NCBI GenBank assembly: GCA_030447745.1
Contig: JAUJOH010000010.1
Coordinates: 35,374 to 99,373 of the forward strand
Direction: 5' to 3'
DNA from: Chloroflexota bacterium
GTDB lineage: Bacteria; Chloroflexota; Limnocylindria; Limnocylindrales; CSP1-4
Length of the DNA stretch: 64,000 nucleotides
Shown here piece after piece: positions 26,510-64,000 of this stretch. Under the pieces are notes generated by a model that was not told the origin of the DNA, searched no databases, and saw nothing but the letters and a program-made list of their open reading frames with translations. The number at the start of each line of letters is the position of its first letter. The stretch's first letter is position 1. A program made the position numbers and the translations under genes.

Positions 26510-26535
26510 GACATCGCCCTCGTTCCAGATCGGAT

Positions 26536-41093: not shown

Positions 41094-41244
41094 CCGTCAG
41101 GACTTGAACTGCTGCGGGTGGATCGGGCACGACAACCCAGATGGCCTCACCGGCTCGTACTCCGTGAATGAGCAACTACCACGACACGTACATCAGCGAG
41201 GGGCGGAGGCAACTCGGGGTCTAGGTTTCGAGATCCGGATCCAC

Positions 41245-41705: not shown

Positions 41706-42049
41706 CATGAGAAAGTCCCCACTGGTGGCGTCGCCGGTCGCCACACGAGGCGACCGTTCGTTTCACCTGCCCACGGCCGTGGTAGCGGGCGCACAAACCG
41801 CTTCAGCCAGCAACCACGCCCGCTCGATGAAACGGACGAGCCGATGCGAGACCCGGGTTGGGCTCACACGAGGCACGTCGCGGCGAGAACACGGCGACGT
41901 GGCACTTCGCGTGCCACGGGGGTTGGTGGATGAACAAAACCGCACGGCGGCGCGGCTCCCGACCGGGACGTAACGCCGGATCACCTTGAGTGGCGTTTCC
42001 TTGGACCGGACGGATCCGTCATTCAGAAAGGCGAAGGCATTCTCGCAGC

Positions 42050-45553: not shown

Positions 45554-46608
45554 CTGCGCAGGCCCGCGATCAGCCGGCGGACGCGGCGTGCGGCCAGCCC
45601 CGCCCGGTAGACCGCCGGACGGAGGACCGTCTCGTGGGCGCCGGCGGACGCCACCCACTCGGCCCCGAACGAGGCCTTGTGCTCGTAGAGGCCGTAGCCC
45701 GGGTCGCCTGGTTCGGGCCGGCGCCGCGCCCCCGCGGTGTCGACGCCGCCGAGGTCGATCGACGGGTAGCCGGCCTCGACCGCCTCCCGGATGGCATGCC
45801 AGCGGAGCAGGTGCATCGTTCCGGGCAGCTCGCGGCGCATATCAGCCCGGTCGCCCGAAAAGGCAGTCGCCAGGTGGCCTCCCTGGCAGTACGCGAGCAG
45901 CCCCCCGAGCACGCATCCCTGATGGACCGCGAGCCAGAGGCGAGCCTGCCGCGCGTCGAGGACCCGGCGCCACCAGGCCAGGAAGCCCCGGTCCGATGCG
46001 AAGTTGAACCGCCGTCGCTCGGCCGCCGCGTCGACGAGCGCGGCGAACGCCTCCAGGTGCACGCCGCGCGCATCGTCGACGACCTGCGTGCCGGACCGCT
46101 CGGCGGCGCGGATCCGCTGGCGCGCCTGCTTGGAGACGCGCGCGCGGACGGCCTCCAGGTCGTGTCCCGGTTCCCAGCTCAGGATCATCCGGTGGCGCGA
46201 TGGCTGCAGCTCCTCGGTCGGACGGTAGCCGGCGGCGGCAAGAGCCCGATCGTACGCTGGATCCTCGTCGAGCTCCGGGTCCACGGCGAGGATCGTGCCT
46301 CCCTCGCCACGGACCCAATCGGCGAGACCGGCCGCCCGCGCGGCGACCGGTTCCACGCCGTCACCGCCGGAGATCGGCCCGCGGGGCGCGTACGCGACGA
46401 AGCCCGGCAACGGCGGCTGCGGGTGCGTGAGGACGAGCGCCGAGGCCCCGTCGGCGAATCGGAGGAAGTGGGACCGCCAGCCCTGCGCCGCGCGGTGCGC
46501 GGCCCACGCGGTTCCCTGCAGAACGTGACCGCCCGGCGGATCGACGGTCCGGGCGTCCCAGCCGTCGGGCGGCGCCGATGCCGCCCCGACCACCGCGATC
46601 GGCATCAC
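45550..46608 (-). CDS. FemAB-family peptidyltransferase, paralog 2
   Basis: LQGTAWAAHRAAQGW...HLLRWHAIREAVEAGYPSIDLGG. Start is GTG 46608 (GTGA overlap with the paralog-3 stop) or ATG 46605. Confidence 0.7.
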   Translation of the reverse strand: MMPIAVVGAASAPPDGWDARTVDPPGGHVLQGTAWAAHRAAQGWRSHFLRFADGASALVLTHPQPPLPGFVAYAPRGPISGGDGVEPVAARAAGLADWVRGEGGTILAVDPELDEDPAYDRALAAAGYRPTEELQPSRHRMILSWEPGHDLEAVRARVSKQARQRIRAAERSGTQVVDDARGVHLEAFAALVDAAAERRRFNFASDRGFLAWWRRVLDARQARLWLAVHQGCVLGGLLAYCQGGHLATAFSGDRADMRRELPGTMHLLRWHAIREAVEAGYPSIDLGGVDTAGARRRPEPGDPGYGLYEHKASFGAEWVASAGAHETVLRPAVYRAGLAARRVRRLIAGLRR

Positions 46609-47675
46609 GTCGCATCGCCGTCGGTCGTGGCGTCGCCCGTGCCGCCGGGTGCTGCTCCGCCACGGACGCCGTGCCGGAGCCTGGCGGCGCTGACCACGGC
46701 CCGCCGGGCGACGTTCGTGACCGCGTTGCCGAGCCGGTCGACGACCAGGACCCGCCCCCCGACGTACTGCACCTCGCGCCCGCCGAAGCCGGACTTGAAC
46801 CGCTCGATCCCGGCGTGCGCGACGCCCCACATGTCGTAGACCTCAAAGCCGCGCTCGCGCGACGACCGGATCGCCTCCCACTTCAGGAGGTAGTTCGCGC
46901 GCGACCGCGCCCCGGCCTCGGACATGCCGCCGTACGGCTCGATCACGCGCCGGCCACAGGTCAGCAGGAGCAACGCCGCCGCGGGATGCCCGTTCGGCAG
47001 GCGGGCCAGGAGGAGGCGAGCGCGACCGCCCTCGTCGTACGCCCGGAACACGTCCTCGTACGCCTGCCGTGAGCGGTGGACGAACCCCGCTCGGCGTGCC
47101 GTCTCGACGTACAGCCGGTAGAAGTCGTCGATCCCCGCGGCGCCCGCGTCCTCGACCGTCACGCCGGTGCGGCGCGCCTTGGACACGTACTGGCGCCACT
47201 TCGAGCGGAGGTCGCCCCACAGCGCGCCCTCCTCGCGGCGGAGGTCGACGAGCCTGGTCCGATCGGCCTGGATCGAGGCGGTCGGTCGCCAGCCGGCACC
47301 ATCCAGGTGGCCGACCAGCGGGTCGCCCGGCTCGACCTCCGGGTCGACCGTCACCTGCACCAGCCGATGGCGGCGGGCTGCCGCTCGCAGCGCGTCCGTG
47401 AGCGCCGCCACGCCAGCGCCATCGAACTGACCTCCGACGGGGCCGCGCGGTGCATAGCCCACCCGCCACGGGGTTGGCCGGAGGTCCCTGACAAGCAGCT
47501 GCAGCCCGATCGGGCCCGGACCGGTGTCGACGACGAGCCGCAGCGACCGCCAGCCGTTCGCCTGCTTGACCCGGGCCCACGCCGTGAGCTGGGTGTACGA
47601 GCCGGTCGGCGCGGCTTCGACGAATGCGTCCCAGGCGTTGGGATCGGCCCGGAGCGTGTCGGCCGCGGCCGTCAC
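46605..47675 (-). CDS. FemAB-family peptidyltransferase, paralog 3
   Basis: TQLTAWARVKQANGW...PYGGMSEAGARSRANYLLKWEAIRSSRERGFEVYDMWG. GTG at 47675 forms GTGA with the murJ stop. Confidence 0.7.
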   Translation of the reverse strand: MTAAADTLRADPNAWDAFVEAAPTGSYTQLTAWARVKQANGWRSLRLVVDTGPGPIGLQLLVRDLRPTPWRVGYAPRGPVGGQFDGAGVAALTDALRAAARRHRLVQVTVDPEVEPGDPLVGHLDGAGWRPTASIQADRTRLVDLRREEGALWGDLRSKWRQYVSKARRTGVTVEDAGAAGIDDFYRLYVETARRAGFVHRSRQAYEDVFRAYDEGGRARLLLARLPNGHPAAALLLLTCGRRVIEPYGGMSEAGARSRANYLLKWEAIRSSRERGFEVYDMWGVAHAGIERFKSGFGGREVQYVGGRVLVVDRLGNAVTNVARRAVVSAARLRHGVRGGAAPGGTGDATTDGDAT

Positions 47676-49237
47676 GCGGGACGCGGGCGGCGGACCAGCC
47701 CGGTCGCCACGGCGACCAGCGCGGGAAGCTCCGGCGCCCGGAGGAGGAGACTCATCGCGGCGTATCCTACCCCGCCGACCGCGGCCGCCGACACGGCGCG
47801 GACGACGGCCTCGACGAAGCCCGGGCCGTCGATCCCGCGCTGGTCGAGACCCGCCAGGACGGCCAACGCCGCCGCGCCGGCGACCAGCGAACCGACCCCC
47901 GCCCGGACGAACGTCGAGCCGACCGGAGCCAGCCGGAGCGCGGCGAAGCGGCGCTTGAGCAGGACGAGGAGGATGCCGGCCTCGATCCACGCCCCGGCCG
48001 CGATCGCGAACGCGAGCCCGGCCAGCCCGAACGGCCCGACCGCGACCGCGCCCACGACCACATTGACCGCGACGGTGAAGATGGCGGCCGCGACCGGGGT
48101 CATGGTGTCCTGGTCGGCGTAGAAGGCGCGGGCCAGGACGCCGATCAGCGAGTGGGCGGCGAGCCCGATCAGGAAGACGGCCAGCGTCGTCGCCGTCACC
48201 TCGATCGCCGCCGCCGTGAACGCGCCGCGCCCGAACAGCATGGCGACGACCTCCTCGCGCAGCACGATCCCGAGCACGGCGACGGGCAGCATCACGAAGA
48301 GCAGGAGCCGGAGGGCGCGGCCCACCAGGGCGACGTAGTCGGCGATCGCGCCGGCGGCCAGCTCGTGCGACAGCGCCGGCAGGATCACGATCCCGAGCGG
48401 CACGCCGATCACGCCGAGCGGGATCTGGAGCAGCGCCATCGCGATGTTGAAGGCGGACACGGACCCCGCGGCAAGGGCCGACGCGAATGCGGTCATGGCC
48501 AGGAACGTGACCTGCGTGGCCCCCAGCCCGAGCGCGCGCGGCGCCATCAGGACGAGGACGCGACGCGACAGCGGCTCGTCGAGGTCGATCCTCGGCTGGT
48601 ACCGGAACCCGACGCCGAACATCGGGCGGACCTGGACGAGCAGGTGACCGAGCGCCCCGACGACCACCCCGACGGCGAGGCCCGTGACGCCGAGCGCCGG
48701 GGCGAGGAAGATGGCGCCGCCGAGGATCCCGAGGTTGTAGGCGATCGGCGCGAGGGCCGAGGCGGCGAAGCGACCGCGAGCGTTCAGCACGCTCGTGGCG
48801 ACGGCGCCGAGCGCGAGCAGGATCGGGCTGAGCAGCATGATGCGGGTCAGCTCGACCGTCCGGGCCAGCTCCGCCGGGCCGAACCCCGGCGCGATCGCCG
48901 GCACGAGCAGTGGCGCGAGCACGAACAGGACCACGGCCAGCACGAGCAGCGCGGCCAGCATCAGGTTCATGACCGTCGAGACCACGCGCCACGCCCGCGC
49001 GTCGTCGTTCGTCGCAAGCAGGCCGGAGACGATCGGGATCACGGCGGACCCGAGGGCACCGGCGGCGACGAGCTGGAAGACGAGGTCCGGGATCCGGAAG
49101 GCCGCGTAGAAGGTATCGAGCTCGCGGCCGATGTTGAACGTCGTCGCGATGACGACGACGCGGACGTATCCGAGGGCCCGCGAGGCGAGGAATGCCGCCG
49201 TCACGATGAGGCCCGCCTGGGCGAGCCGGCGGTTCAT
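47672..49237 (-). CDS. murJ: Lipid II flippase MurJ (MviN family), copy 1
   Basis: MNRRLAQAGLIVTAAFLASRALGYVRVVVIATTFN... with 14 predicted TM helices of the MOP/MVF fold. Confidence 0.8.
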   Translation of the reverse strand: MNRRLAQAGLIVTAAFLASRALGYVRVVVIATTFNIGRELDTFYAAFRIPDLVFQLVAAGALGSAVIPIVSGLLATNDDARAWRVVSTVMNLMLAALLVLAVVLFVLAPLLVPAIAPGFGPAELARTVELTRIMLLSPILLALGAVATSVLNARGRFAASALAPIAYNLGILGGAIFLAPALGVTGLAVGVVVGALGHLLVQVRPMFGVGFRYQPRIDLDEPLSRRVLVLMAPRALGLGATQVTFLAMTAFASALAAGSVSAFNIAMALLQIPLGVIGVPLGIVILPALSHELAAGAIADYVALVGRALRLLLFVMLPVAVLGIVLREEVVAMLFGRGAFTAAAIEVTATTLAVFLIGLAAHSLIGVLARAFYADQDTMTPVAAAIFTVAVNVVVGAVAVGPFGLAGLAFAIAAGAWIEAGILLVLLKRRFAALRLAPVGSTFVRAGVGSLVAGAAALAVLAGLDQRGIDGPGFVEAVVRAVSAAAVGGVGYAAMSLLLRAPELPALVAVATGLVRRPRPA

Positions 49238-49338
49238 CGTCACGGCGCCGCGAGACCGGTGGCGGCGGTCCGGCCGTGCCGGCGGCGGCTCTTCTCGAGG
49301 ACGGTCCGGCGCGGCCGGCTCGTGGCTGGTACGCGAGC

Positions 49339-50997
49339 TCACGACCGCCCCCGACGGTGCAGCAGGTCGGTCATGAGCGCGATCATCGAGGCGAGCTCCG
49401 GGATCCGCAAGACGACGCTCAGCACCAGGTAGACGGCCCCGAACGCGACCGTCACCAGGACCGACTGCGCGACGAGCGCGAGCGGGCCGGGATCCGGTCC
49501 GATGAGGCCGTCGATCGCATAGAGCGCGAGCAGCCCCAGCGCACCGGCGACGACCGTCGCCAGGGCGGCCTCGAGGCCGACCCGCACGACGTCGCCGACG
49601 CCGAGCGACGGCAGCCTCCGCGTGAGCAGCACGATCAGCACGGCCGCCTCGATCCACGCCGCGACGGCGATCCCGGTCGCGATGCCGGCGAGCCCGAGCG
49701 GACCGACGAGCAGCGTGGCAAGGACGGTGTTGACGACGACCGCGAGGACGGCCGCGCCGACCGGAGTTCGGGTGTCCTGCCGGGCGTAGAACGCCCTCGC
49801 CAGCAGCGCGATCAGCGCGTGCGCCGCGAGGCCGCCCAGGAAGAACAGCAGCGCGTTCGCCGTCAGGTCGATGTAGGTGCTCCCGAGACCCGGGAACAGG
49901 ACCGTGACGACCTGCCGGCGGAGGATCGCGAGCAGCCCGGCGATCGGCAGCATCACGTACAGCAGCAGCCGCAGGCCGCCCGTGACGAGCCCTACGTACT
50001 CGCGCTCGCGGCCGGCCGCCGCGACCCGCGCGAGCGACGGGAACACGACCACCCCGAGCGGAACGCCGATGACGCCGACCGGGATCTGGAGCAGCGTGAA
50101 CGCGGCGTTGTAGGCGGTGACGGCGCCGGTGCCGAGCATCGTCGCCAGCGAGGTGACGACGACGAACGTGATCTGGCTGGCTCCCAGCCCGACCGCACGT
50201 GGCGCCATCAGTCGGAGCGTCTGACGCGCCCGATCGTCAGCAAGGGCCGCCACCGGTTCGTACCGGAAGCCGATGCGCCGCAGCCCGGGCAGCTGGACGA
50301 GGAGATGCGCGAGCGATCCCACGACCACGCCGATCGCCAGCCCCTGCACGCCGAGGCTCGGGGCGAGGAGGACGGCGCCCGCGATGATCGCGACGTTGTA
50401 GACGATCGGCGCCATGGCCGCCGCGGCGAACCGGCCGGAGGCGTTCAACACGCTCGTCGCCACGGCTCCGAGCGCCAGGAACACGGGGCTCAGGAGCATG
50501 ATCCGCGTCAGCTCGACGGTGCGCGCCGTGTAGAGCGCGTCGAAGCCGGGCGTGATCGCCGGCACGATCGCCGGGGCCGCGACGGAGAGCCCCACCGCCA
50601 GCACGGCGAGGGCGATCAGCATCACGTTCGTGACCGTCGATACGACTCGCCACGCCCGCTCGTTGGCGTCGGCCGCCAGCAGGGTGGCCACGATCGGGAT
50701 CAGGGCCGACCCCAGCGCGCCGGCGGCGACCAGCTGGAAGACGAGGTCCGGCAGCCGGAAGGCGGCGAAGAAGGCGTCGAGATCCGCCGATGCGCCGAAC
50801 GTGTTGAGGACCACCACCGTGCGCACCCAGCCGAGCGCCCGGGAGGCGAGAAACGCCCCCGAGACCACGATTCCCGCGATCGCCAGTCTCCGGCCACGGC
50901 CGGCCGGCGGCGCCGAAGGACCGGGAGTGTCCGCTGCCCGCCCCGGGTGCGCGACCGCCGTCGGAGGGTCGATCGGGCCGGTGCGCCCGCTCGTCAA
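49339..50997 (-). CDS. murJ: Lipid II flippase MurJ (MviN family), copy 2
   Basis: RLAIAGIVVSGAFLASRALGWVRTVVVLNTFG...; paralogous to copy 1. Start uncertain: TTG 50997 (TTGA overlap with the xerC stop) or GTG 50955. Confidence 0.7.
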   Translation of the reverse strand: MTSGRTGPIDPPTAVAHPGRAADTPGPSAPPAGRGRRLAIAGIVVSGAFLASRALGWVRTVVVLNTFGASADLDAFFAAFRLPDLVFQLVAAGALGSALIPIVATLLAADANERAWRVVSTVTNVMLIALAVLAVGLSVAAPAIVPAITPGFDALYTARTVELTRIMLLSPVFLALGAVATSVLNASGRFAAAAMAPIVYNVAIIAGAVLLAPSLGVQGLAIGVVVGSLAHLLVQLPGLRRIGFRYEPVAALADDRARQTLRLMAPRAVGLGASQITFVVVTSLATMLGTGAVTAYNAAFTLLQIPVGVIGVPLGVVVFPSLARVAAAGREREYVGLVTGGLRLLLYVMLPIAGLLAILRRQVVTVLFPGLGSTYIDLTANALLFFLGGLAAHALIALLARAFYARQDTRTPVGAAVLAVVVNTVLATLLVGPLGLAGIATGIAVAAWIEAAVLIVLLTRRLPSLGVGDVVRVGLEAALATVVAGALGLLALYAIDGLIGPDPGPLALVAQSVLVTVAFGAVYLVLSVVLRIPELASMIALMTDLLHRRGRS

Positions 50998-51989
50998 GCC
51001 GGGTCGTCCGTCGTGGCGCGCGGGTGCGCCTGACGGTATGCCGCTCGGAGTCGCGTGGGCGACACGTGCGTGTAGACCTGCGTCGTGGCGAGGCTCTCGT
51101 GGCCCAGCAGCTCCTGTACCACGCGCAGGTCGGCACCCCCGTCGAGGAGGTGGGTCGCGAAGGAGTGGCGAAGGGTGTGCGGCGAGACGCCCTCCGGGAG
51201 GCCGGCGGCGCGACACAGCCGGTCGAGACGGTAACGCAGCCCGCGCACGCCGAGAGGCTCACCGCGGTGGTTCAGGAAGACTTCCGTCGGCGCGGTCGCC
51301 GCGGAGGCCCGCCGCCCGACGAGGACCGGTCTGCCGTCCGCGAGGTAGCGCTCGAGTGCGTCGACCGCGGGCCGCCCCAGGAGCCCGACTCGTTCTTTCC
51401 GCCCCTTCCCCAGCACCCGGATCTCGCCCCGCCGCGGGTCGAGTGACGCGAGCTCGGCCGCCGCCAGCTCGCTGATCCGGAGACCCGCCGCGTAGGCCGT
51501 CTCGACGATTGCCCGGTCACGGACGGCGAGCGCCGCCAGGAGCTGCCCACGGGCCAGGTCACGATCGCCCGCAGCGTCGAGGCGCCCGGCGCTTTTCCGA
51601 ACGACGCCGCCCTCGATCGCGTCGAGCAGCCGCTCGACCTGCTCGACCTCGAGGACACGCGGCAGCCGGCGCTGCAGACGCGGCGTCGCGATCGCACCCC
51701 AGGGGTCGCCCGGGGCGAGCCCCTCGCGAGCTGCAAAGCGATGGAACGAGCGGATGGCGGCGAGGCGCTGGGCGACGGAGCTCCTGGCGACGGACCCCAC
51801 CAGGGACGCGAGGTACGCGCGCAGGTCCGCCCGCGGGGGCTCGCGCCAGTCCACGCCCCGCTCGCCGCGCCAGGCCAGGTACCGTCCGACGGCGCCCGCG
51901 TACGCCCGCGGCGTGTGTGGGGACACGTCACGAGCCGCGAGCGCCGCCAGGAACCGGTCGAGGGCGGCGACTCCCGCCGGCACCGTCAC
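50994..51989 (-). CDS. xerC: Tyrosine recombinase XerC
   Basis: ...HTLRHSFATHLLDGGADLRVVQELLGHESLATTQVYTHV. Second Xer paralog in the window (xerD at 6287). GTG start near 51989. Confidence 0.8.
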   Translation of the reverse strand: MTVPAGVAALDRFLAALAARDVSPHTPRAYAGAVGRYLAWRGERGVDWREPPRADLRAYLASLVGSVARSSVAQRLAAIRSFHRFAAREGLAPGDPWGAIATPRLQRRLPRVLEVEQVERLLDAIEGGVVRKSAGRLDAAGDRDLARGQLLAALAVRDRAIVETAYAAGLRISELAAAELASLDPRRGEIRVLGKGRKERVGLLGRPAVDALERYLADGRPVLVGRRASAATAPTEVFLNHRGEPLGVRGLRYRLDRLCRAAGLPEGVSPHTLRHSFATHLLDGGADLRVVQELLGHESLATTQVYTHVSPTRLRAAYRQAHPRATTDDPA

Positions 51990-52002: not shown

Positions 52003-54426
52003 TCACGCGTCGGACGCGGCCTCGGTGGCGTTGCGCCCGGTGGCAGCCTTCGCCCGACCACCGCTCCGTGCTCGTCCGGCACCCGCCGGAGCCCGACCGT
52101 TCCGGCGTCCGCCGCCACGCGCGGGACGCGCGAGCGCCTCGGGGTTCGGCGGCCCGCCCGTCAGTCGTCGGCCGGCGAGATCGCCGTCTGGCAGCACCAC
52201 GTCCGCGCCGCATTTCAGGCACAGCGCGCCGTCGCCCTTGCGTGCCACTGGACCGTCGTCCGAGTCATGGACGGCGCCCACCGGCTCCGAGTTGGTGGTG
52301 TAGTCGCACCTCGGGTAGTTCGAGCAACCCCAGAAGACGTTCCCGGTCCGCCGGGCGCGGCGCGGCACGAGGTGGCCGTCGCCGTTCTTCGGGCAGGTCA
52401 CCTCGAAGGGCAGCGGTTCGGGTGGCGGCGGGCCCTCCTTCCGGATGAAGTCGCACTCCGGATAACGTGAGCAGCCGACGAACGGGCCGAAACGGCCGCG
52501 CCTGGCGACGAGCGTCCCCTCGCCGCACCTCGGGCACGTCTCACCCTCGCCCTCCTGGGGCGGCGGCTCCTCGCCCGGCAGCGGCCGCGTCTCCTTGTGA
52601 TCCGGATACGTGGAGCAGGCGAGGAATCGGCCGTTGCGCCCAAGGCGGATGACCATCGAATGGCCCTCCGAGCAGACCTCGTCCGTCTCCTCCGTGGTGA
52701 AGTCCTTCCGCCGCAGCTCACGCCGCTTCTCGTCGACCCGGTCCCGCAGCGGGCCGTAGAAGCCGCGCAGCAGCGGCACCCATGCCCGCTCGCCGCGGGC
52801 GACCTCGTCGAGCTCGTCCTCCATCCGCGCCGTGAACGCCAGGTCGACGTAGTCGCCGAAGTGCTCCACGAGCAGGTCCGTGACGATCTCCCCGATCAGC
52901 TCCGGCCGGAGCCGGCGGTCCTCGACCCGCACGTACCCGCGGTCGAGGATCGTGGAGATCGTGGCCGCGTACGTCGACGGGCGGCCGATCCCGTGCTCCT
53001 CGAGCGCCTTGATCAGCGCCGCCTCCGTGAAGCGCGGCGGTGGCTCCGTGAAGTGCTGCGTTGGCTCGACCTCGCGGACCTCGGTCTCGTCACCCGCGGC
53101 AAGCTCCGGCAGGCGGCGCTCCTGCTCGTCTTCGGCACCGTCGTCGCGGCCCTCCGTGTAGACAGCCGAGAACCCGTCGAACAGCGTGCGAGTCGCGCTC
53201 GCGCGGAGATCGTAGGGCGCCGCGTCGAGCTCGACGATCGTCGTCTCCATCTCCTTCGACGCCATCTGCGAGGCGACGGCCCGCTGCCAGATCAGGCGGT
53301 AGAGCCGCAGCTCGTCTGGCTTGAGGTGGCCGGCCAGCGAGTCCGGGTCCCGCCGGAAGCTCGTCGGCCGGATCGACTCGTGCGCCTCCTGGGCCCCCTT
53401 CGCCTTGGTCCTGTAGACGCGGCCCTTGGGCATCGTGTAGCGGTCACCGAAACGCTGGCCGATGACCTCCCGGGCATCACGCATCGCGACGCCCGCGATG
53501 GCCGTGGAGTCCGTCCGCATGTAGGTGATCAGGCCGACGTGGCCGTCCGGCGTGTCGACGCCCTCGTACAGCCGCTGCGCGACGGACATCGTCCGCTTCG
53601 GGCTGTAACCGAGCTTCCGGCTCGCCTCCTGCTGGAGCGTCGAGGTCGTGAACGGCGGCGCGGGGTTGCGCTTGAGCGGCCGTGTCCCGACGCTGCGCAC
53701 GACGGGTCGCCGCTCCCGCAGCGCGGCGGCGTGGCGCTCGGCCGTCGCCGCGTCGCCGACGTCGATCGCTTGACCGTCGATCCGGACAAGATCCGCGCTG
53801 AACGTCTCGCCGGTCTGTGTCGCGAGCGTCGCCTCGAGCGTCCAGTACTCGCGGGCCACGAAGGCATTGATTGCCCGCTCGCGCTCGACGACGAGCCGCA
53901 CCGCGACGGACTGGACGCGGCCCGCGGACAGGCCGCCCCGGACCTTCCGGGACAGCAGCGGGCTGAGCGTGTAACCGACGAGCCGGTCGACGATCCGACG
54001 GGTCTGCTGGGCGTCGACGAGGTTCGTGTCGATGCCCCGCGGATGGTCGAAGGCGTCGCGGATCGCGCCCTCCGTGATCTCGCTGAAGATGACCCGGCGC
54101 GTCTTCTCGGCGGGCACGCCCGCGGCCTCCGCGACGTGCCACGCGATCGCCTCGCCCTCGCGGTCGAGGTCCGTGGCGAGATAGACGGTGTCTGCCCGCT
54201 TCGCCTCGCGCGCGATCGTGTCGACCTGCTTCCGGCGGTCGTCGCTGACCACGTACTCCGGCTCGAAATCGCGGTCGACGTCCACGCCGAACTTGCCCTT
54301 GCCGGGATTGTCCGGCAGGTCACGGACGTGGCCGTACGAGGCCACGACGCGGTAGTCGCCGCCGAGATAGCGTTCGATCGTCCGCGCCTTGGCAGGCGAT
54401 TCCACGATCACGAGGTGCCTGGGCAT
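52003..54426 (-). CDS. topA: DNA topoisomerase I
   Basis: MPRHLVIVESPAKARTIERYLG (Toprim), catalytic Tyr region, C-terminal C4 zinc ribbons and a basic tail. Confidence 0.9.
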   Translation of the reverse strand: MPRHLVIVESPAKARTIERYLGGDYRVVASYGHVRDLPDNPGKGKFGVDVDRDFEPEYVVSDDRRKQVDTIAREAKRADTVYLATDLDREGEAIAWHVAEAAGVPAEKTRRVIFSEITEGAIRDAFDHPRGIDTNLVDAQQTRRIVDRLVGYTLSPLLSRKVRGGLSAGRVQSVAVRLVVERERAINAFVAREYWTLEATLATQTGETFSADLVRIDGQAIDVGDAATAERHAAALRERRPVVRSVGTRPLKRNPAPPFTTSTLQQEASRKLGYSPKRTMSVAQRLYEGVDTPDGHVGLITYMRTDSTAIAGVAMRDAREVIGQRFGDRYTMPKGRVYRTKAKGAQEAHESIRPTSFRRDPDSLAGHLKPDELRLYRLIWQRAVASQMASKEMETTIVELDAAPYDLRASATRTLFDGFSAVYTEGRDDGAEDEQERRLPELAAGDETEVREVEPTQHFTEPPPRFTEAALIKALEEHGIGRPSTYAATISTILDRGYVRVEDRRLRPELIGEIVTDLLVEHFGDYVDLAFTARMEDELDEVARGERAWVPLLRGFYGPLRDRVDEKRRELRRKDFTTEETDEVCSEGHSMVIRLGRNGRFLACSTYPDHKETRPLPGEEPPPQEGEGETCPRCGEGTLVARRGRFGPFVGCSRYPECDFIRKEGPPPPEPLPFEVTCPKNGDGHLVPRRARRTGNVFWGCSNYPRCDYTTNSEPVGAVHDSDDGPVARKGDGALCLKCGADVVLPDGDLAGRRLTGGPPNPEALARPARGGGRRNGRAPAGAGRARSGGRAKAATGRNATEAASDA

Positions 54427-54566: not shown

Positions 54567-55851
54567 TCATCCGCCCGGCTGCCGGCGAACGGACCCGTCG
54601 ACCCGTGCCGCGAGCAACCCGGCCGGTCGATAGCGTCCGTACGCGTCGACCACCAGCCCGCGCATCTCGAGCATGGTGAGCGCGGTCAGGACCGACGAGA
54701 CCGGGAGCGCGGTGGCCGCGACCAGCTCGTCCACGGTCGTATGGCCGGCCAGCAGCTGTCCCGCCACCGTCCGCGGCACCTCGCCGACCTCGCCGAGCGA
54801 GGCCGCGACGGAGCGCGGGACGACGTGCCACCGTCGAGGTCGGTCCGGACCAGGTCGAGATCCTCGAGCAGCTGCGATACGCCGGCCACGATCCCGGCCA
54901 CGCCCGGCGCGTCACGGAGGAGCGACAGGCAGCCCGCGCTCGTCAGGCGGTCGATCGGCCCCGGAACGACGAAGCAGTGACGTCCCTGCTCGAGCGCCCA
55001 GTGGGCCGTGACGAGTGCGCCGCTGCGCGCGCCGGCCTCGACCACGACCGTGGCGTCCGACAGGCCGCTGATGATCCGGTTTCGGCGCGGAAACGTCCCA
55101 CGCGTCGGCTCGACGTCCGGCGGCAGCTCGGACACGACCGCGCCGCCGCCGTCGATGATCGCGTCGACCAGCCGCCGATGCGACCGCGGGAACAGCCGCT
55201 CGTGCCCACCGCCGAGCACGGCCACCGTCGTGCCGCCCTCGGCGAGGCACGCGGCGTGCGCGGCACCGTCGATGCCCACCGCAAGACCGGAAACGACCGC
55301 TGCGCCGGCCCGCGTGACGGCGCCCGCGATCCGGGCGGCGGTCAGCCGACCCGCCTCCGACGGGCGGCGCGTCCCGACCACCGCCACGGCGCGGGCCGTG
55401 CCAAGGGCGGCGCGATCGCCGCGGAGGAACAGGACGTGGGGCGGCACCTCGATCGCCCGGAGGCGGGGCGGGTAGTCCTCGTCGTCGAGCGTGACGAGGC
55501 CCACGCCGGAGCGGTCGATCCCGGCCAGCGTCGCCTCCGCGCTGCGGGCCGAGGCAACGACCGCGCGGATCACCCCGTCGGTGCCTGTCGCTCCGCCGAG
55601 CTGGCGGCGTCGGCAAGCGACGCCTCGTCGCCGCGTGCTGCGGCCTCGAGGACTGCTCGTGCCGAGCCCACGGCCGAGACGAGACGCCCCAGGGTGATCG
55701 GACCGAGGCCGTCGACGCTCACCAGGACGGCAAGCGCCTGCCGTTCCGTCAGGCCACCGGGCGAAGCGTCCGGCGGCCCCGCCGGCTCGGATGGCGCCGG
55801 CCGGATGGCGAGACCCGGCCCCAGAGGTCTGGTGCGGCCGACCCCCAGCAT
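54567..55851 (-). CDS. dprA: DNA processing protein DprA (Smf), read through two apparent frameshifts (near 55575 and 54800)
   Basis: N-terminal SAM-like segment LTERQALAVLVSVDGLGPITLGRL (ORF 55570..55851); Rossmann core GIDGAAHAACLAEGGTTVAVLGGG (ORF 54686..55573); C-terminal winged helix RTVAGQLLAGHTTVDELVAATALPVSSVLTALTMLEMRGLVVD (ORF 54567..54779). Confidence 0.75.
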
Positions 55852-57207
55852 CAGCTGGCCATCCGCTGCGCCAGCCTGCTTGCCGGCGGTCGCGCGCGGC
55901 CTCCTCGAGGTGGACCGCCTCGACGGATTCCGAACTGGCCAGGTCCGCGATGGTCCGAGCGACGCGGATCAGGCGCTCGGTCCCCGCCCGGACAGGCGCT
56001 CCAGCTCCGCGAGGTCCACGGCACGCCGCTCCGCGGTCGGTCCATCCTTGCCGCCACCCGGAGCGCCCGGCCGCGGACGCGGGCGTTGAGTGCCCCTGGC
56101 GGTCGTCCCGCCTGGCGCAGTCGGGCGGCCGCGATCCGCTCGGCGACCACGCTCGACGTCTCGGGCGTCGCCCCGGTCACGAGCGCGGTGGCCGGGACGC
56201 GCGGCATCGTGGCCCAGATGTCGATCCGGTCGCGCAGCGGTCCGAGATGCGGGCGGCATATCGGTCCGCCACGGTGTCCGGGCACCGGCACTCCGGGTGT
56301 GCCGGCGAGGCCGCACGGGCACGGGTTCATCGCCGCCACGAGCTGGAAGCGGGCCGGGAAGATCGTCGCGCGCCCGACCCTCGAAGATGGCGACGCGCCT
56401 GGCGGAGGGCCTCGATGACGGCGACGGCCGAACTCCCGGCAGCTCGTCGAGGAACAGGGTCGCGTCTGCCAGGGTCACCTCGCCCGGCGAGAGCCGCGGC
56501 CCCCCGCCGACCATCGCCGCGTAGGAGAGCGTGTGGTGTGGGGCGCGGAACGGCGGCCGCCGAACGAGTGTCCGCACGGGCCCGTTGCCGGACACCGACG
56601 CGATGACGGTCGCGGTCAGCGCGGCGCTGTCGCCGAGCGGCGGCAGCACGCCGGGAATCGTCCGTGCCAGGAGCGTCTTGCCGGAGCCGGGCGGCCCGAT
56701 CAGCAGGATCCCGTGCCCGCCGGCGAGCGCGATCTCCAGCGCCCGCCGCGCCTCGAGCTGCCCATGCACCTCGGCCAGATCCGGCACGACGTCTCCCCCA
56801 ATGGCGTCCGGCGGCACGGCGGCCGGTGCCTCGCGTCCCGCCGCCTCGATCCGCTCCGGCGCTCCCCGCGACCGCCGACGCGAACGGCTCGAGCGGACGA
56901 CGTCGACGGCCGCGCCGAGCGACGCCACCGCGACCACGTCCACGCTGTCCGCGAGACGGGCCTCGTCCGCGGCCGCCGCCGGCACCACCACGCGGGTGGC
57001 GCCGCGACGCGCCAGCGCAGCGACCATCGGCAGCACGCCCGGCACGACCCGCACCTCGCCACCGAGCGACAGCTCGCCGATGAGCGCCAGACCTCCGGGT
57101 GCGGCGTGCACCTGCTCAGAGCCGAGAAGGATCCCGATCGCGATCGCGAGGTCAATGGACGACCCGGCCTTGCGCAGGTCCGCCGGGGCGAATAGTGAGA
57201 TATGGCG
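55851..57207 (-). CDS. comM: Mg-chelatase-like AAA+ ATPase ComM/YifB, 5'-truncated (about 70 N-terminal codons missing) and with internal frameshifts
   Basis: ISLFAPADLRKAGSSIDLAIAIGILL (Lon-like N-domain), LLIGPPGSGKTLLARTIPGVLPPL (Walker A), FRAPHHTLSYAAMVGGG, LFLDELP (Walker B), then MAAMNPCPCG in another frame. The reading frame opens only at 57207, directly after a TAG. Confidence 0.7.
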
Positions 57208-57288
57208 CTAGGTTGCTTGATCGCAGGGGCGGCATGAGGTACCCAGTCGCGGGCGGTCTCAGACGGCTCCGCTAGACGCTGTGGTCGG

Positions 57289-57798
57289 CTACCGATCGGG
57301 CCGGTACGGCGCCTTGGCGTCGATGCTGCCGACGAACTGCGGCAGGCGAGCGTGACCGAGCTGCTGGCGGATGGCGGCATTCTCGCCGGTGTGGAACCAG
57401 TAGTGGTAGATGACCCGCTGGAGCAGGTCGCCGTAGCGGCGCTTGAGCTCCGACCCGCCGCTGATGACGTGGCGCTCCAGATCGTCGCTCGTCAGCGTGT
57501 CGAGCCAGGGATCGGCGGCCGCAGCGAGCGCGCGCCAGGCATCGAGCACGCGCTGCAGCGGCGGCGTGCTGGCCGGCCCACCGGAGGCGAACTCGCGGTC
57601 GATGTCCGGAAAGGGCCGCTGGCCACTCGGCCAGGTGACGAAGTACTGCTGCTCTTGCCAAGCGAGATGGCCGACGTTCCAGCTGATGGAGTTCATCGGT
57701 CCGATGCGTCGGCGGGCATCGTCATCGGTGACTCCGCGGATGCCACGGATGAACTCGGTGCGTGTGAACCGCAGTTGGTCGACGAGCGGGTGCGGCAT
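57289..57798 (-). CDS. DinB_2-family (DinB/YfiT-like) metal-dependent protein
   Basis: 169 aa: WNVGHLAWQEQQYF...VIYHYWFHTGENAAIRQQLGH. Confidence 0.65.
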   Translation of the reverse strand: MPHPLVDQLRFTRTEFIRGIRGVTDDDARRRIGPMNSISWNVGHLAWQEQQYFVTWPSGQRPFPDIDREFASGGPASTPPLQRVLDAWRALAAAADPWLDTLTSDDLERHVISGGSELKRRYGDLLQRVIYHYWFHTGENAAIRQQLGHARLPQFVGSIDAKAPYRPDR

Positions 57799-57904
57799 GC
57801 GACGATCCTCTCACCCATTGTTGGCAGCGTCTGGCAGGAATCCCGATCAGACTTGCACGCGCACGGTAGATGGGAGGGGCAGCAGTGAACCCTGGCTCGT
57901 CGAG

Positions 57905-58380
57905 ATGATGCGCTACAACGCGTGGGCGAACCGGACGCTGTTGGATGCCTGCCGAGAGCTGACCGACCAGCAGCTCGATGCCCGTCTTCCGGTCACGTCG
58001 GGATCCAGCCGTGAACTGCTGATCCACATCATCGGCGGCCAGCAGACATTCGCGCTGCGCACGAGGGGTCGCCAGCATGAGGGGGAGCTGCATCGGGGCA
58101 GTGCCTGGCCGGGTATGGACGAGATCATCCGACTGGCCGCGAGCACGAACGAGGAGCTCATCTCGATGCCGAGCAGCTCGACCCTGAGCATGAGACCGAT
58201 CTCCCGTACCTCGGCACTGTGTATCGGTATCCAACTCGCTTCTTCCTCGTCCATGCGGCCGCGCACGGGGTCGAGCACCGCGCCGAGGTGAAGCTCAACC
58301 TCGCGCACATCGGCGTCGACACGCCCGATATGGACGGCTGGGCCTACGGTGAAGCGACCGGATACGGTGCCGAAGTCTGA
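57905..58380 (+). CDS. DinB-family protein with a frameshift near 58190
   Basis: MMRYNAWANRTLLDACRELTDQQLDARLPVTSGSSRELLIHIIGGQQTFALR... then in the +1 frame DAEQLDPEHETDLPYLGTVYRYPTRFFLVHAAAHGVEHRAEVKLNLAHIGVDTPDMDGWAYGEATGYGAEV-stop. Confidence 0.6.
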
Positions 58381-58499
58381 CTGCGGACGGTGTGGCACGC
58401 CAGGACGCCGCAGGCTAGCGGCCGCTCGCTCCCATCATTCGGTTCTCGCGACGGGCTGTGCCGCACGAATGGCTCGCGGCATCCGCCTAAGATCACATG

Positions 58500-58856
58500 T
58501 CAGGGTGATTGCTGGTGGAGGAGCAGCTTCCACTCGCCGTTCCGTCGGACATAGACGCTCGACATCGCCGCTTCGTATCGCGCCTGGCCCGGCCGTTCGC
58601 CCACGGCCTTATAGGTGATCAACGCGACGTCATCGTCGCCAGTGACGCGGACAGCGCTCAACTCATAGCTAGACCATGGAGCGACTTGGGGGATGGTGCC
58701 GAGCGAAGCCTTCTTGTCCATCACCATGCCGGGGAAGACCATCAGTCCCTCCTCGGCCATGATGTCCTCGTAGAACGCCGCTCCGCCCGGACCGGACAGC
58801 GCATCCCAGCCTTGGCGCTCTAGCCCGTCTACCTCGGCGCGCAGTGCGTCGTTCAC
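58500..58856 (-). CDS. SnoaL-like / DUF4440 (NTF2-fold) protein
   Basis: 118 aa: ...AFYEDIMAEEGLMVFPGMVMDK...YVRRNGEWKLLLHQQSP. Confidence 0.55.
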   Translation of the reverse strand: MNDALRAEVDGLERQGWDALSGPGGAAFYEDIMAEEGLMVFPGMVMDKKASLGTIPQVAPWSSYELSAVRVTGDDDVALITYKAVGERPGQARYEAAMSSVYVRRNGEWKLLLHQQSP

Positions 58857-59059
58857 ACCGCGAGTATGTGCAAGCGTCTTGCCCTAAGTCCAGCAGTGCC
58901 GGGATCTCCTCGCAGGTCCAGATATGGTCCGCGGCGCCTGCGGCGTCGTCCGCCGAGTCGCCTGACACGCATTTATGAAGGAGCGGCCGGTGTCAATGGG
59001 CGTCGCTCGATCGGCTCATCGATGCTCCGAGCGGCCAATGCGGCTGGCAGAATCGACGG

Positions 59060-59455
59060 ATGTTCGCCGTCGAGAATCGTGAACGCGTTCGAGATCATGT
59101 GCTGGCCCGAGCTCACTCGGATCCCGCCATCGTCGCCGCGGCCTTCGTCGGGTCCTTCGCCGGAGGCACGGACGATCGCTGGTCGGACCTGGATCTGACG
59201 TTCGCAGTAGCAGAGGGCCAGGCGGTTGATGAAGTCCTCGAGGAGTGGACTCGCTGGTTCTCACGAGACTTCGAGGCGCTCCGGCTCTTCGACTGGCCGG
59301 TGCCGCCCACCATCTATCGGGTGTTCCTCTTGCCGGGCAGCCTGCAGGTTGATCTCTCGTTCACGGCCGTCAAGCTGGGCCGCGAAGTGGTTATCGGCCA
59401 GCCCGCCACTCACGACGTCCGGGCGGGGGGTGCAGGTTTGCGTGATAGAGGCTAG
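59060..59455 (+). CDS. Nucleotidyltransferase-domain protein (aminoglycoside/antibiotic adenylyltransferase-like), possibly truncated
   Basis: AAFVGSFAGGTDDRWSDLDLTFAV (Pol-beta-like NT motif GS...D.D). 131 aa is short for the family. Confidence 0.45.
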   Translation: MFAVENRERVRDHVLARAHSDPAIVAAAFVGSFAGGTDDRWSDLDLTFAVAEGQAVDEVLEEWTRWFSRDFEALRLFDWPVPPTIYRVFLLPGSLQVDLSFTAVKLGREVVIGQPATHDVRAGGAGLRDRG

Positions 59456-60098
59456 CCCGGGCACAACCCGCCCTCCTTATCGAGTATTGCTTGCCGCCGC
59501 GCTTCCGGCTCCTGGAATTGGCTGTTCGAGGGCAGGGCGCATCCCCGCGCCCGAAGGGTACCCGCTTTCACTTACGTGTCGCAGAGAGCAGGACCATGGA
59601 GCAACTGAGCGGGATTCGAATCAGGGGACGGAGGCCGCTCGATCGTGGTGACCGGCGTGCCAATGCGACAGCAGATAACTCGACGCTCTACGCCCCCCAC
59701 CCACGCACGGTGCTACAGCGCATCGGCCGGGATGGTCCGAGGTTAGCAAGCCAGTCACTAACCACCGTTAGTGGCGGCGCTGGCAGTTCATGACGCACAC
59801 CGACCTGCGCTTGAGGGCCGACGGCCTCGACTTCTGGGTCGACGTACACGTTCACCCTTCGACGGCGGATGGCTGGCGGTGGCCGACCTCGCCGGCGAGC
59901 CGGAGCTTCGGTGGGCATACGAGGCGGCCGGTGCCGTCAAGACGGCCGCCGGGCTTGGCCCGGTCGCCCGCCGTCGCTGCTGTGGCTCAACGGGAGCTTA
60001 GCGACCAATAGGCATCACGTACGTATCCTAGGCGACCACTTTTCCTCTTACCCAGAGGGTCGCAGTGCGCTAATTCACTACGCAACCAGTTTTTGCGA

Positions 60099-60905
60099 TC
60101 ACTCGCTGCGGCTCCTGGAGAGCCTCTTATCGCCGAGGCGAACGCACTTCATCTCGCGACGGTCGTGAAACCGCGCGGTCGAGTCGGCTTGTTGGCCGAC
60201 TTCTTGCCCGCGGCCCCACGAATCTCCTCCACGGACACCGAGTCTCCGAATAGCAGCCGGGCCTGTCATCCATGGAGTCCCTGAACATCGCCTGCCTTCG
60301 TCAACGTCAATCCTGCTTGTGACAAGCTGCTCCTGACGCAACTCAGCGCGCCGCGTCCGTCCGGCGCCACAATCATCGAACGGCTGTTCTGATACGGGTC
60401 CAAGGCTGCATTACAGGATGCGAACCAGATGGTGTTCTCTGCCGCACGCGTAACAATCATCGAATGGTGATCCAACTTCGCGCGGCGGTGTGTGGTGTTG
60501 TTCTGAGGATGGAAGACGATCTGTGCGCCCTGGCGAACGATCAGCAGTGGTCGCGGCGAACGGAAGCCTTCGAAGCAGATAACAACACCAACTCGGACCC
60601 CTTGGATATCGAAGGTCTCAATCGAGCCTCCGGCCGAGTACGCCAGGGCGTCTAAGGGCGTGAGTTTTGTCTTGTGGTGGTGCCCTGCAGGATCCCGCAG
60701 GTCCTATGACCACCGCAGAGTTGTATCTGTGCCATCCGCCAGATTTGGCGTCTCCGTACCAAGAATGCAACCGATCCTCGTTGGGCACATCGCATGGCGA
60801 GCTGTGCAGGGATGATGCGGCGGGGCTTGGCGCCCGCGGATCGACAATGTCGACGGTAACCGACGGTTTGCGCGGAAAGCACAGGATGTCAACTCCAGGC
60901 CACAT
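60099..60905 (-). pseudogene. Carbon-nitrogen hydrolase (nitrilase/amidase superfamily) remnant, multiple frameshifts
   Basis: Fragments in three frames: WPGVDILCFP...HRYNSAVVIGPAG; MIVTRAAENTIWFASCNA; SRIDVDEGRRC. Lower GC than the rest of the window. Confidence 0.45.
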
Positions 60906-60992
60906 AGTCTATGTACCGCAGGATCGTTTCGGCGTTCGCATCGAAGTCATTCGTCTGACGGACCTGCGCGAGTCCGATCGTCAGCGGGCGCA

Positions 60993-61633
60993 TTACCGAT
61001 CGGCCCTCTTCAGACCGATTTTTATGAATGTCGTATCACGGGAGAAGATGTCCCCGCTCAGCATCCCAGCACGTTCGGCGATCCGCCAGAACGCGTAGTC
61101 AGCCAGTTCAACGACGGTTGCTTCTAAGCTTCTAACGACCGTTTCCGCTTCGCCACCTGTCGTGTGATACCCGGCGGCGTGAGCGACTGCTTCCGGAAGA
61201 CCGTCGTCAGAGCCACATGGACTCCGTATGCGGGATGGCGGATCGCCGGTAGCCCTGCAGCGGCGGGGTCCGCCCTCCATGATTGTCGGGGTCATATTCG
61301 AAGGCTTTGCCAACGTCATGACATAAGGAGGAAGCGACAAGAATGTCGCGGTCGATCCTCGTCGCGCCTGTCACTTCTTCAAGCCCGTCCGCCATCCTGT
61401 CGAGCCGTCGCTCGCAAGTGATCTGCCTGAGATAGGTGCGTCAGGACCGCAGTCCCAGGGACACCCGAGGCTGGAATGTCCTCGATGCGCCGGAACGACG
61501 TTCGGCTCAAAGCGAAGACCCATGCCTCAATGACCTTGGTCCGAAGCGCGTCATCCTGAATGAGATCCAGCTCCGGCAGGCTTGCCTTCACACCGGATCG
61601 GAGCTCCGCCTCTCGACTGTCTTCCTCAGTCAT
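60993..61633 (-). pseudogene. HD-domain phosphohydrolase remnant (fragmented)
   Basis: ILVASSLCHDVGKAFEYDP (HD motif) in ORF 61207..61395; N- and C-terminal pieces in ORFs 61379..61633 and 60993..61340. Confidence 0.4.
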
Positions 61634-61656
61634 CTAGATCCTCCAGTCATCCCTCG

Positions 61657-62994
61657 CTAAAAGTAAGTGCGTATTGCTCCCGTAATGCTGCCGTCCGGGC
61701 GAGCCGTGAAGAGGGTCCGCCAGCGGTCGAATGCTGAGCACGGATGAGAAACACCCAACGCAACGATGTCGGTGACGCCTACTCGTGACCCCGACGGCAC
61801 TTCGAGATAAGCGTGGTGGTCGTCCAAGCGTCGGATTCTGTAGCGCGAGTCGACAGCACCGTGGCTGCCGTCCGAACGGATCACGGTGAGTGGCACCGGA
61901 AGCCCGGCATCATAGGGGGCGTCGCGCCGCCCCAACAGCAGGATCGCCAGGCGCTCTTCAGGCCGCGATATCACCGGTGCCCACAAAGTGAGAGCCGCCC
62001 GAAGTCCGTCGCCCGATGGTCGGTAACGTCGACTTCCGAGAGGCGACATTTTGTCGTAGATCCCGGAGTCGTGGGCGATATATGCCCCCGAGCGCAGGAT
62101 CAACTGCATGTCATCGGTAGCAAAGTCGGCGTACTCCGCGACGACGATGTCGAAGTACGCACTACCACCCGCGGAAACCAGGAACGGCTCAACATCTCGG
62201 GCCAGCGGCCGGAGCATGTTTGCGATCACCCCGAGCTCGCGTAGATAGTCTCGGACGGGGTCTGGAGTCGCTGGCTGGCTTTGCCGGCGCGTGATTGTGC
62301 CCTCAAACCCAGCGACGCCGGCCAGCACAAGGTGTCTACTCTGCTCCACCTCGCGTGCGATTGCCACGGCCGTGGCTGGGTATCGAACGCCCGTCCGTCC
62401 GCCGTCTTGACCAACCTCAAGCAGCACCGGAAGTCGGCGAGGCGTACCGCTAAGGCGCTCGTCGAGCATTCGTACACCGTCGATGCTATCGACAAAGACA
62501 ATGACTTCCGTGAGGCGCTCGCCGACGAGTTGCTCGCGCAGATAGCGCGTGTCATGGCTGGTGGCGACCTCGGTTGCGACCACCACTCTAGGAACGCCGA
62601 AGGCCTCGCAGACGGCCAGCTGAGGAATGGTTGCAACGGTGATCGCCCAAGCGCCCGCCCGGAGTTGCTCCGCGAAGATCTGCGGCGCCATCGTCGTCTT
62701 GCCGTGTGGAGCCAGCCAAGCGTTGTGTTCGTCAGCGTACCGCTGCATGACGACCGCGTTGTTGAGCAGGGCATCCGAATCCAGGGTTAGGAGGGGGAGC
62801 GGAACGTCCGTCGAACCGACGTACCAACCCTGCCGCCCTACCTCGCTCAGCGCTATCGGCGCCTTGTGAGCAGTTGCTCGGTCAATGGCAGGCATCGGGC
62901 TATCAAGGAGCCCCTCGATTGCCGCCTCGACAACTGGCGTGGACCCGTGGGGTCTCGGTTCGAAGTGGAGTTGTTTCTTCGACGGATCCGCCAT
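61657..62994 (-). CDS. PLP-dependent enzyme with alanine-racemase-like N-domain (D-serine dehydratase-like / D-threonine aldolase DSD1 family)
   Basis: Intact 445-aa ORF: WLAPHGKTTMAPQIF (PLP-Lys in HxKT context), then a C-terminal beta-domain. Divergent from the IclR regulator. Confidence 0.7.
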   Translation of the reverse strand: MADPSKKQLHFEPRPHGSTPVVEAAIEGLLDSPMPAIDRATAHKAPIALSEVGRQGWYVGSTDVPLPLLTLDSDALLNNAVVMQRYADEHNAWLAPHGKTTMAPQIFAEQLRAGAWAITVATIPQLAVCEAFGVPRVVVATEVATSHDTRYLREQLVGERLTEVIVFVDSIDGVRMLDERLSGTPRRLPVLLEVGQDGGRTGVRYPATAVAIAREVEQSRHLVLAGVAGFEGTITRRQSQPATPDPVRDYLRELGVIANMLRPLARDVEPFLVSAGGSAYFDIVVAEYADFATDDMQLILRSGAYIAHDSGIYDKMSPLGSRRYRPSGDGLRAALTLWAPVISRPEERLAILLLGRRDAPYDAGLPVPLTVIRSDGSHGAVDSRYRIRRLDDHHAYLEVPSGSRVGVTDIVALGVSHPCSAFDRWRTLFTARPDGSITGAIRTYF

Positions 62995-63006
62995 AGCCCT
63001 TCAAGC

Positions 63007-63036
63007 TTGACAGGGAAGGAGGTCACAGCCTACCAT
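63007..63036 (+). promoter_or_regulatory. Candidate sigma70-like promoter for the IclR regulator in the divergent intergenic region
   Basis: TTGACA (63007-63012), 18-nt spacer, TACCAT (63031-63036); 26 nt upstream of the iclR ATG at 63062. Confidence 0.3.
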
Positions 63037-63061
63037 CCCCGCAGGTCGCTATACGAGCAAT

Positions 63062-63847
63062 ATGTCCGATATGCGAGCGGATGGCCGGAATTCCGCACTG
63101 GGCGTGCTTCAAAACGGAATGGCCCTCTTGGAACTTCTCGCCACGCGTGGAGGCCTGACCGTGGCCGAAGCGAGCCGAGGGATCGGCATTAGCCGCGCCG
63201 CAGCGTTCCGGCTCCTTCACACATTGAGCGTGCAGGGATACGTTCTTAAGAACTCTCGATCCCCTCGTTATTACCCCGCCGCCCGTCTAATCGCGCTGGG
63301 TCAGTCGCTAACGTCCTCGACCGCGATTGCCGGACTAATGAAGAGCGCCATGGCGACGCTCTTCGAGCTTTATGGCGAGACGGTGAATGTCGGACTCCCG
63401 CACGGCGATCGTGTTCTCTACATCGACATGCTCGAGAGCCGCCGTGGGCTCCGTATGGCTGCGCAGATCGGTGAACGGGACCACCTCCACTCCACGGCGC
63501 TCGGGAAAGCCCTGCTCGCGGCTTTGAGTCACGAGGACGCAGCAGCGTTGATAGCGGGAATCCCACTCCCGAGGCTCACCCACAGCACGATCACGTCGCG
63601 AACCGCACTGTTCGCAGAGATTGCCAGGATCCGCGAACGCGGCTATGCGGTCGATGATGAAGAGAATGAAATGGGCGCGCGATGCGTGGGCGTGGCAATT
63701 CGTGACGCCGGCCGTCCAGTTGTCGCCCTTAGCGTTTCAGGTCCCTCCGTCAGGATGCCGGAAGCCCTCATCGCGGACATTGGACGGAAGCTGGTGGCGA
63801 CGCGCGACGGGCTGGAGGCCGCGGACCATGCTTGGACTAACGCGTGA
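63062..63847 (+). CDS. IclR-family transcriptional regulator
   Basis: N-terminal wHTH (LTVAEASRGIGISRAAAFRLLHTLSVQGYV) and a C-terminal IclR effector-binding domain. Confidence 0.85.
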   Translation: MSDMRADGRNSALGVLQNGMALLELLATRGGLTVAEASRGIGISRAAAFRLLHTLSVQGYVLKNSRSPRYYPAARLIALGQSLTSSTAIAGLMKSAMATLFELYGETVNVGLPHGDRVLYIDMLESRRGLRMAAQIGERDHLHSTALGKALLAALSHEDAAALIAGIPLPRLTHSTITSRTALFAEIARIRERGYAVDDEENEMGARCVGVAIRDAGRPVVALSVSGPSVRMPEALIADIGRKLVATRDGLEAADHAWTNA

Positions 63848-64000
63848 CGCTCGCTATCTCGCCGTCTGGCTCAACATCGAGGTGATTGCGGCCGGCGTCA
63901 ATAGCACCTTTCGTGCTGGAACCTCTATGGCATCACAATCGGCACCTTTGGTCACGTTGGAGACGGCAATCTGCACCCGACCCTCGTCCTGCCACGGGGA

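Follow-up and report, generated by a model that had tools for sequence, protein, structure and literature searches.

Foreign, partly decayed DNA adjoins a truncated comM in a Limnocylindria-like Chloroflexota genome

In Proteobacteria, foreign DNA is well known to disrupt comM. Has the same kind of event taken place in a genome from another phylum, and if so, by what route? The question is raised by a 64,000-nucleotide stretch of the 112,558-bp Chloroflexota contig JAUJOH010000010.1 (hereafter the window), in which the gene for the YifB-family AAA+ ATPase ComM lacks its 5' end and adjoins 6.8 kb of DNA with a lower guanine-plus-cytosine (GC) content. A sequence-only reading of the window had proposed a genomic island inserted at comM, which our analysis supports only in part. 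With modest confidence, we interpret the window as the edge of a laterally acquired, mosaic, partly decayed variable region that clipped comM. The features discussed below are listed in Table 1.

The truncation of comM is real and does not depend on how its frameshifts are called, as tblastn, DNA alignments, and the YifB/ComM profile TIGR00368 (499 positions, curated cut-off 362.4 bits) agree on it. The frame-corrected ComM sequence, used as a query, retrieved thousands of YifB-family proteins of 520–526 aa, and those with a name are labeled as Candidatus Limnocylindrales or Chloroflexota proteins. P0001 (521 aa, 82% identical), the closest ComM of full length, scores 460 bits on TIGR00368. 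Its tblastn match to the window opens at residue 69 (APADLRK; position 57189), and residues 1–68, which are nearly invariant among relatives, have no match anywhere in the 64-kb window. The loss amounts to 202 nt (67 codons plus one base, where about 70 codons had been estimated from sequence inspection) together with the promoter region, and an in-frame TAG (57210–57208, minus strand) stands six codons upstream of the breakpoint. As it is, the comM open reading frame (ORF) matches profile positions 64–306 of 499 with only 208 bits; the frame-corrected translation matches positions 64–497 with 363.3 bits, which is above the cut-off. The reading frame is incomplete, with positions 1–63 missing and about nine frameshifting indels, and comM is therefore a pseudogene.

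Comparison with related genomes shows what would be expected at this position. We used three loci, L001, L013, and L014 (GCA_964626755.1), whose ComM proteins are 82%, 74%, and 71% identical, respectively, to that of the window. All three have an intact comM (521–525 aa), and in all three the same conserved gene order leads up to it: genes for a pyrophosphatase and LigT, then those for prephenate dehydrogenase, NfeD, Band7, and a CpaE-like response regulator, followed by comM and dprA. L001 and L014 continue with topA, xerC, and murJ; the L013 contig stops soon past dprA. What the window retains of this locus begins at comM codon 68. The relatives' upstream proteins (CpaE-like response regulator, Band7, NfeD, and so on) had no match in the window, and the low-GC block is missing from the same locus in all three relatives, where an intact comM follows different, conserved upstream genes. 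An unchanged gene order with an intact comM start, which would have refuted the island proposal, is therefore not what these relatives show. The earlier remark that rnhB and yraN were absent as expected neighbors used the wrong reference, since in this lineage the expected upstream neighbors are the CpaE-like response regulator, Band7, and NfeD genes, and these are indeed lacking. In L014, a Big_5-domain gene and a small ORF (13037–15027) lie between dprA and topA; the neighborhood is therefore variable in other lineages too.

The DNA on the other side of the breakpoint is compositionally foreign and heterogeneous inside. Core positions 1–57192 have a GC content of 0.730 (1-kb windows: standard deviation 0.025, minimum 0.669), compared to 0.630 for 57193–64000 and 0.611 for 60001–64000, in line with the lower GC noted from the sequence. 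The GC content at third codon positions (GC3) is 0.88–0.96 in core genes and 0.69–0.78 in most block genes: 0.78 for the DUF4440 gene, 0.74 for the nucleotidyltransferase-like fragment, 0.70 for the D-serine-deaminase-like pyridoxal phosphate (PLP) enzyme, and 0.69 for the IclR-family regulator. Both measures shift in three tiers, and the composition next to the junction is graded, from 0.68–0.72 to 0.63–0.66 and then 0.56–0.62.

The gene content of the block is mostly that described by the sequence-only reading, with some corrections. One of its two DinB-family genes is a frameshifted pseudogene, and the nucleotidyltransferase and HD calls are weak matches under the Pfam thresholds; the decay of the CN-hydrolase gene was confirmed, and the FAD-oxidase_C fragment at the window end is an addition to the list. 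Two block genes have close DNA relatives elsewhere. The DinB_2 gene is 82% identical to two JGI contigs (L010 and L011) over 57290–57866, which covers the gene and about 70 bp upstream, and the neighbors differ. The DUF4440 gene has 94.7% nucleotide identity to Logan contig L012 (1479–1985; run SRR13378643), only over 58466–58971. Because each of these relatives shares that one gene only, the block is a mosaic of separately derived pieces, with no single recognizable element. The similarity to L012 reaches some 35 bp past the DUF4440 stop codon at one end and some 115 bp upstream of its start at the other, and the neighbors are unrelated; judging from this, the gene behaves like a single-gene unit moving independently.

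For the PLP enzyme, the closest solved structure is 3gwq (E 3e-70), and the best non-self homolog is only 48% identical. Scans of genome and metagenome contigs gave only 25–36% identical relatives of the IclR-family regulator, whose start is placed at 63161 in the protein-collection gene call, versus 63062 here. Searches of plasmid, phage, and IMG/VR collections gave no match to the block. The spacer between the breakpoint and the DinB_2 gene resembles neither the comM loci nor the DinB_2 loci L010 and L011, and its comM-proximal 25 nt (57192–57216) have no exact match in IMG/VR. Two candidate identities for the block were rejected. Matches to BhcR- and BhcC-like proteins suggested a beta-hydroxyaspartate-cycle module, but their scores are far under the equivalog cut-offs. 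An integron cassette array or cluster of attC sites lacking an integrase (CALIN) was considered because close relatives of single block genes occur in other contexts; the block genes, however, point in mixed directions, and the stretches between them showed no recurrent inverted repeats, although no dedicated attC model was run.

The dprA start overlaps the comM stop (ATGA), which suggests that the two genes form one translationally coupled operon; loss of the 5' end and promoter would therefore have hit both. The course of events that we favor is as follows. Foreign DNA would have been acquired at or beside comM and would have decayed since, the variable region replacing the conserved neighborhood upstream of comM. 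The junction would have taken away the comM promoter and first 67 codons, killing comM and probably silencing dprA through the shared operon. Both genes would now be decaying neutrally and gaining indels, and the lineage appears to have lost two natural-transformation functions. The junction as it now stands is, on this view, more likely the endpoint of a secondary deletion at the island/comM boundary than the original integration site, and it could also be an illegitimate, non-site-specific join: no element end is recognizable, truncated genes fill the flanking block, and some 750 bp separate the break from the Walker B codons used by the characterized comM-targeting elements Tn6022/AbaR and Tsy (PMC10293859, PMC11014353).

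Both genes of the putative operon carry indels. Relative to L001, comM carries changes of +1, +1, −14, +1, +1, −1, −1, −1, and −4, all of them between the Walker B codons and the stop. The first extra base lies 3 nt past LFLDELP. The middle dprA ORF scores 233 bits on TIGR00732 (dprA). Past the first dprA frameshift, a 295-aa ORF (54686–55573, GTG start at 55573) holds the whole DprA core domain, so that a shortened DprA might still be made. No frameshifts were found across about 11 kb of adjacent syntenic genes, versus 11 indels in the 2.6 kb of comM plus dprA: topA, with which the undamaged part begins in the conserved block topA-xerC-murJ-femAB-mur ligase, xerC, two murJ paralogs, the femAB-like genes, and the Mur ligase gene all gave single full-length matches. 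Because these neighbors are undamaged, the indel damage is specific to the two transformation genes. The ratio of nonsynonymous to synonymous substitution rates (dN/dS) relative to L001 is 0.14 for the comM remnant and 0.17 for the dprA remnant, the same as for intact genes, which would fit an inactivation that is young compared with the split of these lineages. Taken as a test for relaxed selection, the ratios do not differ from those of intact orthologs and give no signal of age or decay.

Table 1. Features of the comM locus and the adjoining low-GC block, with neighboring core genes. Positions are those of the window; HSP, high-scoring segment pair.
Feature	Position	Strand	Basis or remark
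comM (YifB-family AAA+ ATPase) pseudogene	55851–57191	−	ancestral codons 68–521, stop 55851–55853; tblastn, DNA alignment, TIGR00368
Breakpoint	57191–57192	.	end of comM homology in DNA alignments with L001, L013, L014
Walker B codons (LFLDE)	56443–56457	−	uninterrupted; attachment site of known comM-targeting elements (PMC10293859)
Indel cluster in comM	55860–56440	−	about nine frame-breaking relative to L001; DNA alignment, switching among three frames
dprA pseudogene	54567–55851	−	split into three frames by 1-bp deletions near 55575 and 54826; tblastn (three HSPs, one per frame), DNA alignment
Spacer, 97 bp	57192–57288	.	between comM breakpoint and DinB_2 stop codon
DinB_2/mycothiol-S-transferase-like gene, intact	57289–57798	−	PF12867, 65.5 bits
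DinB-family pseudogene	57905–58380	+	one frameshift near 58160; frame-joined, PF05163 positions 8–160 of 165, 50.6 bits
DUF4440/SnoaL-like (NTF2 fold) gene, intact	58500–58856	−	PF14534
Possible nucleotidyltransferase N-terminal fragment	59060–59455	+	Polbeta, NTP_transf_2, Adenyl_transf, E 0.02–0.04, sub-threshold
CN-hydrolase (nitrilase-superfamily) pseudogene, frameshifted	60266–60993	−	PF00795, 39–44 bits, six-frame and frame-joined translations
Possible HD-domain pseudogene	61207–61633	−	PF01966, 18.4 bits (cut-off 22), sub-threshold
D-serine-deaminase-like fold-type III PLP enzyme, intact	61657–62994	−	PF14031 and PF01168
IclR-family regulator, intact	63062–63847	+	PF01614 and PF09339; divergent from PLP enzyme gene
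Damaged next-gene start and FAD-oxidase_C fragment	63843–64000	+	PF02913, 22.5 bits, at 63932–63979
murJ	49342–50997	−	intact
xerC	50997–51989	−	intact
topA	52003–54426	−	intact; single full-length HSP, 808/808 residues, 89% identity (tblastn)

Independent assemblies were available for parts of the block. Two short Logan contigs from run SRR24765285 have matches in the window, at 57676–59074 (L016) and 62408–63918 (L017), and this is an Illumina run of Qaidam Basin desert soil, from a study that assembled with MEGAHIT (PMC12624003); the window probably derives from the Qaidam Basin data set, SRP336290/PRJNA1213342. L016 is 100% identical over its match, which confirms the frameshifted DinB gene in an independent assembly. 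L017 is 100% identical over 62408–63843, and identity returns past a short gapped stretch. In the Logan version, ATGA couples the start of the gene past the IclR-family regulator to the gene before it; the window version lacks this coupled start.

Several observations weigh against the edge of a variable region as the explanation, or against parts of it. Of the marks of a genomic island, the block has a deviating composition and is missing at the locus in relatives; as for mobility genes, Pfam scans of the ORFs in its visible part and of the six-frame translation of 58900–61700 found no integrase or transposase, and neither a tRNA nor a terminal repeat lies in 57192–64000. The displaced comM 5' fragment predicted for an island inserted at comM is likewise absent from 57192–64000, so that of this proposal the truncation, the foreign non-core DNA, and the different neighborhood in relatives stand, and direct signs of insertion are not seen in that interval. 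The window contains neither a far boundary of the block nor comM codons 1–67. The gene adjoining the junction, DinB_2, has a host-like GC3 (0.87). The nine comM indels all fall within the 3' 610 bp and leave the 5' 730 bp untouched (p ~0.001 if uniform), a clustering that neutral decay does not predict. At 63843–63879, the window is 28 nt shorter than L017 (1437–1500), with six gaps in about 40 bp; the difference reflects either variation between strains or a local fault of the assembly, and some of the clustered indels could be of the same two kinds. Among the Logan contigs of SRR24765285, we found none that spans position 57191 or the comM and dprA indels. Random indel errors are unlikely given the Illumina origin, but in view of the L017 discrepancy and the odd clustering of comM indels, we regard the comM and dprA frameshifts as probably, not certainly, biological.

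We consider it unlikely, though well worth weighing, that a mobile island inserted directly into comM at codon 67/68 and that its mobility genes and the comM 5' fragment lie past position 64000. Such an event would have precedents. The Tn6022/AbaR elements and Tsy insert at the comM Walker B codons, in a conserved 10-bp region (PMC10293859, PMC11014353), and iMGE6, a 94.9-kb integrase-bearing island in Acidithiobacillus ferrooxidans, is reported to have comM as its integration site and carries RitABC and direct repeats (PMC10322971). The comM break immediately precedes the highly conserved NL/APADLRK codons (NL|APADLRK), and cargo-like foreign genes adjoin the comM 3' part. The likeness to AbaR/Tn6022, which are Tn7-like, TnsF-guided elements of Acinetobacter, is that foreign accessory DNA breaks comM and disables its natural-transformation function; the differences are a host of another phylum and a break that falls at codon 67/68, inside the Lon-like domain of the N terminus. 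On this testable feature the proposed AbaR analogy fails, as the Walker B codons are contiguous and the break lies about 750 bp (~250 codons) upstream of them, where the characterized elements have their attachment site. Nor is an element end recognizable. Tn6022 has TGT...ACA ends and a 5-bp target duplication (PMC11014353, PMC10293859), whereas the junction here, read inward, is ATAGTGAG (ATAGTG..., not TGT), and the 6.8 kb contain neither a repeat nor a recombinase. No tnsA, tnsB, tnsC, tniQ, or tnsF domains were found by the Pfam scans within 57192–64000 (ORFs, and six-frame translation of 58900–61700). Tsy, which consists of a tyrosine recombinase and a TnsF homolog, places its cargo beside the comM 3' part and its YRec-HTH-TnsF recombinase genes beside the 5' part (PMC10293859); the visible layout is compatible with cargo against the comM 3' part, but Tsy targets Walker B and the break here is at 57191|57192. 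The resemblance to iMGE6 is that a large island is reported at comM; an integrase, RitABC, and direct repeats are not visible in the window. Finally, a patchwork of decayed fragments argues against direct insertion.

A related idea is that the block is the cargo end of an undescribed Chloroflexota integrative element that targets the NL/APADLRK codons of comM, not Walker B, with its recombinase or transposase and the comM 5' fragment in the other 48 kb of the contig. We think this improbable. A Chloroflexota case at a different comM position would matter only if it were a true recurrent site-specific target, in which case it would broaden the range of competence-disabling elements; a site-targeting comM island cannot be shown here.

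The variable-region reading has a known counterpart in decaying variable regions or islets without mobility genes, which it resembles in being a low-GC mosaic of single genes with many pseudogenes, missing in relatives at the locus. Relative to these, nothing is distinctive here except the junction inside a conserved gene. The case is one of ordinary genome flux and of gene decay; the phenomenon is known, and only the lineage is new. What it adds is the apparent loss of two natural-transformation genes, comM and dprA, in an uncultured desert-soil Limnocylindria-like lineage, bordering acquired DNA.

Low-GC DNA would also have come to this position if a large inversion or translocation had one of its breakpoints in comM, the block then being an older variable region from elsewhere in the same chromosome. 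Essential-looking genes of the relatives' locus, those for the pyrophosphatase and prephenate dehydrogenase, must persist somewhere and yet are not in the other 57 kb, and the hallmarks of insertion are absent, both as a rearrangement would have it. The junction, however, has no repeat or insertion sequence element to mediate a rearrangement, and without the second junction this explanation is indistinguishable from insertion; we give it little credence. Least probable is an assembly chimera in which a 73% GC Limnocylindria-like genome is joined to DNA of another organism and comM is really intact. In its favor, the source is a metagenome contig, the GC change at the junction is sharp, no independent contig crosses it, and the Logan assembly has a different sequence at the nearby 63843–63879 locus. 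Against it, there are 11 indels in dprA and what is left of comM, as a truly dead operon would lead one to expect, the composition is graded at the junction, not two-state, with a host-like GC3 in DinB_2, and no repeat is shared at the join.

Searches across the whole 64-kb window for tRNA genes and Rfam families found none. Searches for repeats, promoters, and terminators gave nothing beyond chance. A crude GC3-based gene map, made for a window-wide survey of pseudogenes, was uninformative.

The conserved block downstream of dprA differs from that of L001 in copy number. It includes a second murJ paralog (47693–49240, 58% identical to L001 MurJ) and three femAB-like genes (44501–47645), where L001 has two femAB-like genes and one murJ. 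At 6290–7219 lies a second tyrosine-recombinase gene, probably XerD, which shares 43% identity with the syntenic XerC and is not associated with the low-GC block. Milder GC dips (0.67–0.70) occur in the core at 25000–28000 and 39000–42000.

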